Positions 35,090 to 37,861 of a stretch of DNA of 64,000 nt are shown here, piece after piece. Below the pieces are notes generated by a model, which saw only the letters and a list, made by a program, of their open reading frames with translations, was not told the origin of the DNA and searched no databases. The first letter of the stretch is position 1; every line of letters starts with the position of its first letter. Source of the DNA: Geosiphon pyriformis uo1 (taxonomy: Eukaryota; Fungi; Glomeromycota). The position numbers and the translations under genes were made by a program. The DNA lies in NCBI GenBank assembly GCA_016748015.1, contig JAAOMT010000494.1:550190-614189 (forward strand), in the 5' to 3' direction.

Positions 35090-36449
35090 AAAGATGTTGC
35101 TCAACAAGTTCAATGACATCTTCACCAGTGAAAATGAATTTGGCAGAACTGACATCATCCAGCATCAGATCAAAACTGGAGATGCTATGCTAATAAAACA
35201 ACAAACATACAGAGTACCACCCACCAGCCATGAGATCATTTATCAAAAAATCAACCAAATGCTTGACAACAGGCTAATTTAGCCATCAATGAGCCCATGG
35301 TTATCACCAGTAGTACTTGTCTAGAAAAAAAATAGGAAAATCCACTTTTGCATAGACTACAAAAAACTTAATAGAGTCATGCATAGAGACAGCTATTCAA
35401 TTCTATGGATTCAGAAATTATTTGATGCTTTTGGAGAAAACAAATGATTCTCAATATTGGATTTAGATAGTGGTTACTGGCAAGTAGTCATGGATCTAGT
35501 GGACAAAAAAAAAACTGCATTCACAACACAGAAAGGAAATTTTGAATTCGAAGTGATACCATTCGGCTTAACAAATGCTCCAGCCACATTCCAGCAGCTA
35601 ATGGAAATAGTATATACTGGCTTATTGTGGAAATCAGTAGTCGTTTATTTAGATAACACCAATGTGTTTTCCAAAACATTTAATGATTATTTGCATCATC
35701 TATAACAAGTGTTTGAAAGGCTATGACGAGCAAGGCTAAAGTTAAATGCCAATAAGTGCTTCTTTGGCAAGACAGAATTAAACTTTTTAGAGCACATAAT
35801 AAGCAAAGACGGCATCAAAACGGATCCAGAAAAGATAGAGATAATCAAGAACTTTCTAGTACCAACCAATGTAACAGAGTTAAAATCATTTTTGGGATTT
35901 GCAGACTATTATTGACACTTTATCAAAAACTTTTCCAAGATAGCTCAACCACTCAATCATCTCCAAACCAAAAATGTGAAATATGAATAGACAGAAACAC
36001 AACAAGAAGCTTTTGATATTCTGAGAAAAAAGCTTATACAAGCTCTAGTACTAATCTATTTAGATCACAACAAACCATTCATCATTATCACCAATACATC
36101 AGGCCAAGCATTGGGAGCAGTACTATCACAGAGAGGACCAGATAGAAGAAAACATTCAGTTGTATATGCCAGCTGAGGTTTAACTCCAGCTGAAAGAAAT
36201 TATGGAACACCAGAATTAGAACACTTAGCAATTTATTGGGCAGTCATGAAATAGAGCAAATACTTGAGCCAGAAGTTTGATGTATATACAGATTACAAGG
36301 AATTAACAGCACTTTATAAACAGAAATTTAGAGATAGAAGACAATCAAGATAGAAAATGGCACTATTACCATATACTTACACTGTACATTATAAAAAAGG
36401 AAAAAACAATGAAAATGCTGATGGTTTGTCGTAAATGAGACAAATTTAA
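35090..36449 (+). pseudogene. Element D reverse transcriptase-RNase H
   Basis: DLDSGYWQV, KTAFTT, PFGLTNAPATFQ, VYLDN, TNTSGQALGAVL, NYGTPELEHLA, NADGLS*MRQI* (stop 36447-36449). Confidence 0.95.
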
Positions 36450-36478
36450 AACATCTCAACACAAAAATATAATAAAAG

Positions 36479-37861
36479 ATGAACATACAAAAATATCAAC
36501 AACTACAACATTATATAAATATTCAACAGTTCAAGGAGAAATTATCTCAAAATGAGTGAAATAATATCAAACAACAATCAAAACATTTTATCAATTATAA
36601 AAATATACTTTACAAGAAAAACAGAAGAAATTCAGATCAACCAATAAGAGTTGTCACAGAATCAGAGAAAGAGACAATATTATTCAACATGCATTCAGAT
36701 CCAATAGCAACATATTTTCATAAAGAAGCAACCATAAAAAGAACAAAAAAAAGATACTATTGGCCATCAATGTATCCAGATATTATTCAATATGTTCAGA
36801 ATTGTGACACTTGTCAGAAAAGAGGTGGAACAAAATCCAGTAAACCATTAAGACCAATTAAAGTGGGACAACCATTTGACCATATCAGAATTGACTTAGT
36901 CGGACCATTAACAATCACCAGCAAAGACAATAGATACATTGCAGTAGCCATGAACTATCTTACAAAATAGCCAAAAGCAAAAGCCATTCAAAAAGCAGAT
37001 GCAGAATCTGTTGCCAAATTCATTCATCAAAATTTGATTTGTTGACATGGATGTCCAAAAAAACTACTAGCAGATCAAGGAACTCACTTTGTGAACAGAA
37101 CATTAGTGGAATTAAGTCACCAATTCGGAATCAAAAGACCAGTATCATCACCATACCATCCACAAATGAATGGTTTAGTTGAAAGATTTAATAGAACACT
37201 GTGTGAAGCAATTGCCAAAATCAGTCAAGAAAATCAAAAAAAATGGGATTTGTTTATACTATCAGTATTATTTGCTTATTGAACAATAAAGCAAGATACC
37301 ACACAAGCAACACTATTTGAATTGGTATATGGTAAAACAGCAACATTACCAGTTGAGATAGAAATCAATACATATCCAACTAAACCAATAACAGAAGATA
37401 ATTTCCAAGAAACCTTGTTGAAAAAAACATATGACTTAATAGAAACACTAGAAAACAAACAACAAAAAGCAGCTAATAACATCCAAAAGTCACAAGAAAA
37501 ACAAAAAAAAAGACATAATAATCAACTACCAGACAAACCAGTTGAATTCAAAATTGGAGACAAAGTACTTTTACATCATACCAAAGTGGAAAAACAATGG
37601 AGTAGAAAATTTGACCCCAAATGAGACAGACTATTTCACATAGAAGAAATTCTTAGAAATAGAGCTTATAAATTAAGATAGGACACCAAAATCTTAGCCA
37701 AAGCAGCACATGGTGATTGACTAAAACCATATCACCAGATAGCATTATCATCTACCAATACCATTCCACAGTTGGAAGTACAAAGGATAATAGTTCAACC
37801 AAATAAGATTCCATGAGATCTGGAACCAATCATAGTTATTGAACCAAACACATTAAATTGA
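36479..37861 (+). pseudogene. Element D integrase (own ATG at 36479)
   Basis: MNIQKYQQL; H..(H)..YYWPSM..CDTCQ; PFDHIRIDLVGPL; DQGTHF; YHPQMNGLVERFNRTL; FKIGDKVLL. Confidence 0.92.

Follow-up and report, generated by a model that had tools for sequence, protein, structure and literature searches.

According to the usual teaching, integrase (IN) is packaged by retroviruses and LTR retrotransposons through fusion to Pol, and in Ty3/Gypsy elements the cleavage of IN from Pol is established. The domain order of Ty3/Gypsy Pol is set out in PMC3383448. Stop-start junctions of the UAAUG, AUGA and AUGnnUGA types have been catalogued, with a fungal precedent in CHV1, where reinitiation at UAAUG amounts to 2.5-4.4% (PMC2699510); HvV190S and the non-LTR retrotransposon SART1 are further precedents (PMC10275272). 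Foamy-virus Pol is packaged via genomic RNA (PMC7828637). Plant Tat elements hold an additional RNase H in a separate ORF (PMC10508981). Ginger1 DNA transposons and YPYY-type Gypsy groups (Athila/Tat, Gypsy-1-I_RO) have in common TGTNR ends and target duplications of 4 bp centred on CG (PMC2836005). For a stand-alone integrase ORF in LTR elements no published description was found, most subscription papers and Repbase entries lying outside the search. The available parts of two AMF transposon papers (PMC11952901 and bioRxiv 2021.03.30.436303) do not discuss a separate-IN organisation; the first gives LTR elements as 41.2% of the Geosiphon pyriformis genome.

The window, meaning the whole 64,000-nt stretch of G. 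pyriformis DNA analysed here, was examined by self-comparison and three-frame maps. Nested decayed LTR retrotransposons fill it, and four insertions (A, E, C and D) carry an RNase H (RH)-IN junction. D lies within the RT of C, C within the RT of E, and A lies apart, which makes four independent Ty3/Gypsy insertions (Table 1). Ty3/Gypsy anatomy was present (LTRs with TG...CA ends, PBS, PPT, target duplication), and Pfam matches on D followed Gypsy order: Retrotrans_gag, Ty3_capsid, aspartyl protease, dUTPase, RVT_1, RT_RNaseH, Integrase_H2C2 and rve. LTR pairs of the window elements were 87-90% identical, with nearly all differences being transitions in every sequence context; for D the values were 87% identity and 95% transitions. 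ORF1 is likely one long ORF because gag-pol frame switches were not common to different elements, and a single long counterpart was found in relatives L006, L011 and L015.

Table 1. Positions of the element features. Coordinates are those of the window, except for the last line, which refers to a metagenome locus.
Feature	Position	Strand	Basis
Element A	~4027-14217	minus	self-comparison, frame maps
Element E, split by C within RT	~19966-49337	plus	
Element C, interrupted by D	25131-45374	minus	
Element D, inserted in RT of C	29285-39427	plus	
D 5' LTR, TGTTA...TAACA	29285-30170	plus	LTR pair comparison
D 3' LTR, purine tract before it	38567-39427	plus	LTR pair comparison
D PBS, 18 nt; its end holds the donor-like GAG/GT	30173-30190	plus	sequence
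D ORF1, decayed: long N-terminal region, Gag capsid, protease, dUTPase, RT, RNase H; TAA 36447-49	30200-36449	plus	Pfam, frame maps
D pol-IN spacer, 29 nt, A-rich, ATG-free	36450-36478	plus	sequence
D stand-alone integrase ORF, 460 codons with 8 decay stops; begins M-x4-Y, contains H2C2 finger and rve core	36479-37861	plus	Pfam, homologues
D ORF3, 211 codons with 2 decay stops; belongs to a helical protein family found across the clade	37918-38553	plus	homologues
C pol stop TAA (28138-36) and 30-nt spacer	28106-28138	minus	sequence
C stand-alone integrase ORF, 458 codons	26729-28105	minus	sequence, frame map
A pol stop TAA (7307-05) and 10-nt spacer	7295-7307	minus	sequence
A stand-alone integrase ORF, 455 codons; ORF3 downstream	5927-7294	minus	sequence, frame map
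E pol stop TAG (46129-31) and 49-nt spacer	46129-46180	plus	sequence
E stand-alone integrase ORF; start is ATA, a decayed ATG	46181-47566	plus	sequence, frame map
Structured RNA motif, example directly before the IN AUG	L015:4457-4507		

Flanks and neighbouring features were recorded separately. The 4-bp flanks of D, ACAA/ATGA (29281-29284/39428-39431), were read as a decayed target duplication. C is flanked by a 4-bp target duplication (25127-25130/45375-45378) and A by CCAT/CCAC; the duplications of D and C both agree with a single CG-centred target that has decayed by C>T/G>A, as in Ginger1 target sites. In the window elements the dUTPase domain lies between protease and RT (34110-34600) and also occurs in the separate L067/L080 lineage (L067:778-2400). 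At 17566-19960 a fifth element with 5' LTR, PBS and gag was found, with no IN seen there, and at 63739-63929 lies a related LTR fragment in inverted orientation. Positions 50500-62100 hold host genes with normal CpG (o/e 0.92 versus ~0.2 in the elements), which by eye are taken to be a tRNA pseudouridine synthase-like gene, a kexin-like protease and a leucine-rich-repeat protein. No tRNA gene was found within the 64-kb window.

An earlier reading made from the sequence alone (the sequence-only reading) had proposed that pol stops at the same place after RNase H in all four elements and that a separate IN ORF follows. The stops, the spacers of 29, 30, 10 and 49 nt (D, C, A and E) and the IN starts (ATG in D, C and A, ATA in E) were all confirmed at the positions in Table 1. 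Each of the eight RT-RH and IN segments (10,052 nt in total) keeps a single frame. Between C and D there were no indels over 1149 + 1392 coding nt (2,541 aligned) and a 1-nt indel in the spacer. CAA and TAA stand at 79:13 in the C and D coding sequence, so that CAA-to-TAA decay is at most ~14% and the chance of four coincident decay stops is ~0.14^4 = 4e-4. For three frame changes in four ~30-nt windows the chance was ~1e-5 when frameshifts were taken to occur as often as in gag, where they are more frequent (13 switches over ~24 kb, one of them an artefact of joining element halves). The stop within ADGLS(*)MRQI is a decayed Arg codon (TAA in D, TGA in C), as the sequence-only reading implied. 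One DNA run was also aligned to D, with 10,345 contigs on 36000-37000 and 40 of 303 differences listed. One TAA inside the D spacer is decay too, as T36473C is the majority letter in the contigs of this run. Fourteen of its contigs diverge from D directly after the stop, with a consensus ~2 nt longer (weak at the far end), suggesting a third spacer length. A short hairpin was predicted just before the pol stop of D (36423-36446) and at the same place in C, A and E; the z-scores were weak (-1.8 to +0.3), and the hairpins are absent from relatives. It is regarded as practically certain that IN forms a gene apart, opened by a start codon of its own after the Gag-PR-RT-RNase H ORF has ended in a stop.

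Homologues of IN were collected by protein search (492 proteins at E 1e-20, 252-804 aa long, by a search blind to fusions), and the best 120 were examined. Of these, 96 begin at the Met column of the query, always with Met followed by D, E or N and with Tyr at position 6; the others begin at a downstream Met (20) or slightly upstream (4). Where cluster members are named, they come from R. irregularis and Entrophospora. Across 47 rows no variation was found at M1, Y6 and the catalytic D, D and E. For the DNA of metagenome relatives, 80 of the 431 loci found were kept, 35 of them with RNase H upstream. One of these, L056, also stops after RH but had no IN start that could be located and was set aside, leaving 34 scorable junctions that include about five near-duplicates.

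All 34 scorable junctions were split, with pol ending in a stop and IN having its own ATG; a continuous RNaseH-IN frame, for which the relatives were checked, was found in none of them. The frame of IN relative to pol was distributed 11/12/11. Ten junctions overlap (-1 twice, -4, -8 three times, -11 twice and -14 twice, with types including TAATG and ATGA), five have spacers of 24-39 nt, ten of 61-93 nt and nine of 156-727 nt. Frameshifting or readthrough as the rule is excluded because every scorable locus is split and all three frames occur. The canonical placement of IN inside the pol ORF thus fails in 4/4 window elements and 34/34 scorable loci, and together with the shared Met the claim that IN is a separate cistron holds for the whole clade. 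The elements belong to a large, mainly Glomeromycota Ty3/Gypsy lineage with a separate integrase gene. Several relatives also carry a conserved Pol extension of 235-314 aa behind RNase H (L011:4348-5163, L015:3497-4438, L018, L022, L027) with no Pfam match; the Pol tail of L055 is 586 aa long and unrelated to it.

Longer proteins were searched separately (1086 hits, best 120 examined). These 120 were mostly ordinary fused Gypsy polyproteins at 29-40% identity. The top Glomeromycota hits, P0124 and P0125, are gene models without the RH end and without the first ~22 IN positions, and these gaps are likely due to an intron that was predicted to span the junction. Two continuous (fused) proteins, P0126 and P0129, were found in or beside the clade. 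P0126 holds RT-RH, IN and an ORF3 homologue in one chain and nests among split INs at 100/99; this position in the tree favours a re-fusion, or a read-through by the gene caller, over an ancestral state. Trees of RT grouped 31 split rows with two fused rows and one gene model (SH-aLRT 88, and 82 in a second tree), and L067/L080 fell outside this group. The RT trees give moderate support for grouping most split rows, and the split may have a single origin.

Behind IN lies the third ORF that the sequence-only reading had made part of a tricistronic element, and this part was borne out, with ORF3 homologues behind IN in 23 loci. A protein search with D ORF3 returned seven hits, all of them G. pyriformis proteins, the best being an intact 211-aa protein 81% identical over its full length. 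The window ORF3 hits L004 directly and can be aligned to the core pattern of the family, whose members range from 120 to 280 aa. L009 ORF3 was predicted to be all-helical (pLDDT 94.5). No clear Pfam, PDB or viral-fold match was found, the best fold-search Z being 4.5. A presumed resemblance to DUF1016/DUF3102 was dropped, as a single member hit DUF1016_N, and at no better than E 0.11. ORF3 is thus best described as a predicted helical protein, conserved across the clade and of no known family. It is unlikely to be a membrane glycoprotein like the env that forms ORF3 in Errantivirus-like elements, although a lack of matches does not by itself keep a protein out of a family, and the likeness to a complex retrovirus drawn in the sequence-only reading is loose, ORF3 having no env-like match. 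The fusion of ORF3 to the IN C-terminus in P0126 hints that it may be an IN cofactor. Some members have no ORF3, and IN runs into the PPT and then the TG of the LTR. Extra ORFs between IN and LTR occur at L013:7404-8258, L057:2942-5367 and L061:2967-3854, with no convincing Pfam match.

The route by which IN is made had been proposed to be termination-reinitiation or a spliced RNA. The first of these is favoured by the overlaps and by the depletion of ATG in short spacers, and IN is on balance probably translated from the full-length RNA by termination-reinitiation, the best-fitting mechanism. Of the ribosomes that finish Pol, a few percent would stay bound and resume translation at the IN AUG, which overlaps the stop or lies close to it. 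Restarting would hold IN far below the level of Gag/RT where gag-pol is one ORF, and ORF3 would be reached by the same stop-restart route. The distances are mixed in this respect: the ten overlaps, the five junctions at 24-39 nt and the window elements (10-49 nt) would suit it, and the ten spacers of 61-93 nt and nine of 156-727 nt are longer. ATG was rarer than expected in the 17 short spacers (10-93 nt; 13 loci and the four window elements), with 4 found versus 11.3 expected (P 0.012). Just upstream of the pol stop of the same 17 there was no depletion (9 versus 8.0 expected), a count confounded by the coding sequence there, and none was found upstream of the overlap junctions. Relay ORFs of 44 or 85 codons, with a stop overlapping the IN ATG, occur in 2/8 long spacers (L032 and L047). 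The junction between IN and ORF3 overlaps in 4/23 loci (-1, -4, -8 and -11).

Other observations speak against termination-reinitiation. Eight non-redundant long spacers (156-727 nt) contain ATGs at chance level (40 versus 43.2 expected), and simple scanning from the pol stop therefore cannot cross them; where spacers are long, either a relay ORF or an independent entry site would be required. The TURBS motif is the word UGGGA, upstream of the stop-start site; it was not enriched within 120 nt (4/48 loci versus 2.1 shuffled). No clade-wide RNA structure before the pol stop was found (mean z -0.33). A purine stands at -3 of the IN AUG in 45/51 loci versus a background of 57% (P 1.5e-6), and a purine at this position is typical of cap-dependent scanning. 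TURBS-type reinitiation is described as Kozak-independent (PMC10275272). In L019, L024, L054, L055 and L062 pol is already behind a gag stop, and reinitiation would yield very little IN there for that reason. In-frame stops within gag-pol before RT (L019:3290, L024:870, L054, L055:2926, L062 and L040) are candidates for readthrough or decay; L013 has a frame overlap in gag-pol in place of such a stop. The fused proteins P0126 and P0129, in or beside the clade, also count against it. Different subclades may use different routes to IN.

The strongest competing explanation, though unlikely, is that IN has its own capped subgenomic mRNA from an internal promoter in the pol end or the spacer, the overlaps being mere compaction. 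It would account for the strong Kozak context and for an ATG depletion limited to ~30-60 nt before the AUG (5 versus 19.4 expected in -30 to -1). T-rich tracts behind many pol stops point the same way, as does the nearest upstream ATG, at least 57 nt off in 8/8 long spacers (a threshold read off the data). Against it, the nearest upstream ATG is often 15-45 nt away in D, C, A and the overlap members, which would give very short leaders; no common upstream hexamer was found besides A/T-rich words, and ORF3 would need another promoter.

Structured RNA came next, as an element that recruits ribosomes internally (IRES-like) or acts in reinitiation in at least one subclade, and such a role is improbable. 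The candidate is a ~45-nt covarying motif ending 0-30 nt before the IN AUG in 19/80 loci, with a further weak hit in L017, and nowhere else in the loci. It has two stems, an outer one and an inner one of 6 bp that carries an 8-nt loop (17 aligned copies). In these copies 96.8% of cells were paired, with 33 double (compensatory) changes in 7/11 pairs, figures that apply to a structure drawn from the very sequences it was scored on; 0/500 shuffles scored as high, and slid controls gave 2-7. The motif, as judged from this covariation, shows selection on the RNA at this point, which may act for translation or for IN recruitment. SART1 requires structure downstream of its stop (PMC10275272), which favours a role in translation. 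The motif has no match in the 64-kb window or the 60 other loci and no Rfam match among the 14 loci searched, and it could be an IN packaging signal or a protein-binding site. R. irregularis INs are 63-74% identical to those of motif-bearing loci. Several motif-bearing elements also carry the 235-314 aa Pol tail.

An env-type mRNA in which a donor near the PBS is spliced to an acceptor before IN is comparably improbable. Foamy-virus Pol is an established case of expression from spliced subgenomic RNA (PMC7828637), and the AG that the sequence-only reading saw directly before the IN ATG is indeed there in C and D. It is confined to these two within the window and is not fixed outside it, standing directly before the IN ATG in only 1/55 relatives. 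YAG lies within 30 nt of the AUG in 16/16 motif-bearing loci (shuffle mean 10.5), but the CAG of the motif is a paired stem position that becomes CGG together with its partner in L009. Within 69 nt in the 35 non-motif loci, YAG was at or below chance (11 versus 15.6) and branch motifs were at chance; an acceptor farther away may exist. The proposed donor was not supported either: the GAG/GT is formed by the last four bases of the 18-nt PBS and is missing in E. Complementarity to the tRNA T-arm would place these letters there in any case.

A programmed frameshift or readthrough to a Pol-IN fusion, or a break that is mere decay, is very improbable and already largely refuted. In its favour, the fused P0126 and P0129 lie near the clade, the genome is heavily C>T/G>A mutated and T36447 is not among the 40 of 303 differences listed, which leaves its fixity in other copies a presumption. 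Against it, the three frames are equally common, the IN frame is closed by stops in many spacers, the split is also seen in intact relatives that have no internal stops, the initiator Met and its Kozak context are conserved, and the 14 diverging contigs suggest a third spacer length.

The separate IN is a real and widespread variation of Ty3/Gypsy gene organisation. A lineage with a broken IN-Pol link must have other means to dose and deliver integrase. No longer delivered by the polyprotein, IN would enter the particle via RNA or Gag binding, like foamy-virus Pol, or meet the cDNA outside. Because junctions vary in nature, from overlapping or fused ones to those with a short, long or structured spacer, the mechanism is directly testable in intact Rhizophagus copies such as those encoding GET66802.1 and GET57239.1. 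Many R. irregularis genes annotated as 'DDE-type integrase/transposase' are likely the second cistron of such elements and not DNA transposases. Neither the covarying RNA motif nor ORF3 has a library match, and both are new parts. Tentatively, and with less confidence than is placed in termination-reinitiation itself, the lineage could be an undescribed Metaviridae branch with an operon-like gag-pol/integrase/ORF3 order read by chained reinitiation, a new structured RNA that starts or packages IN in one subclade, IN delivered without Gag-Pol fusion, and a living model for a Gypsy integrase becoming a free transposase such as Ginger1.

Compared with canonical Ty3/Gypsy elements (Metaviridae) such as Ty3, the elements are alike in LTRs, PBS, PPT and the order Gag-PR-RT-RH-IN, and among PDB sequences the IN profile matches Ty3-G Gag-Pol best (E 1.4e-48). 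They differ in that canonical IN lies inside Pol, whereas here there is a stop after RH, an own Met for IN and a third ORF behind it. Known reinitiation systems (CHV1, HvV190S, caliciviruses, influenza B BM2 and SART1) include a fungal precedent, and their UAAUG, AUGA and AUGnnUGA junctions are all present in the relatives; here the carrier is an LTR element, spacers reach 727 nt, the Kozak context is strong and there is no TURBS motif. If the proposed mechanism holds, the elements would be expressed like stop-start polycistronic RNAs of viruses. In foamy viruses (Spumaretrovirinae) the enzyme is made apart from Gag and requires its own route into the particle, as is predicted for IN here. There the entire Pol (PR-RT-RH-IN) comes from a spliced RNA, whereas here IN alone is separate and splicing signals were not found.

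Ginger1 also has a Gypsy-like stand-alone IN, and its target duplications and ends resemble those of C and D. Five IN-only proteins begin near the IN start column, four of them with Ulp1, PHD or ubiquitin-protease domains and two beginning M-x4-Y; these were read as Ginger1-type. Ginger1 as sister of the split clade (SH-aLRT 89 in a quick tree) was not upheld by a careful tree, which placed the Ginger1-type proteins across a 95/88 branch, and the trees thus disagree on kinship. Ginger1 has terminal inverted repeats, no RT and a Ulp1/OTU tail, whereas the present elements have direct LTRs, gag and RT and neither terminal inverted repeats nor a protease tail, the INs ending at 349-453 aa with no protease domain among the matches listed. 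Plant Tat elements also hold a Pol-type enzyme domain in its own ORF of a Gypsy element; there it is an accessory second RNase H in rare structures, whereas here it is the sole integrase that is separate.
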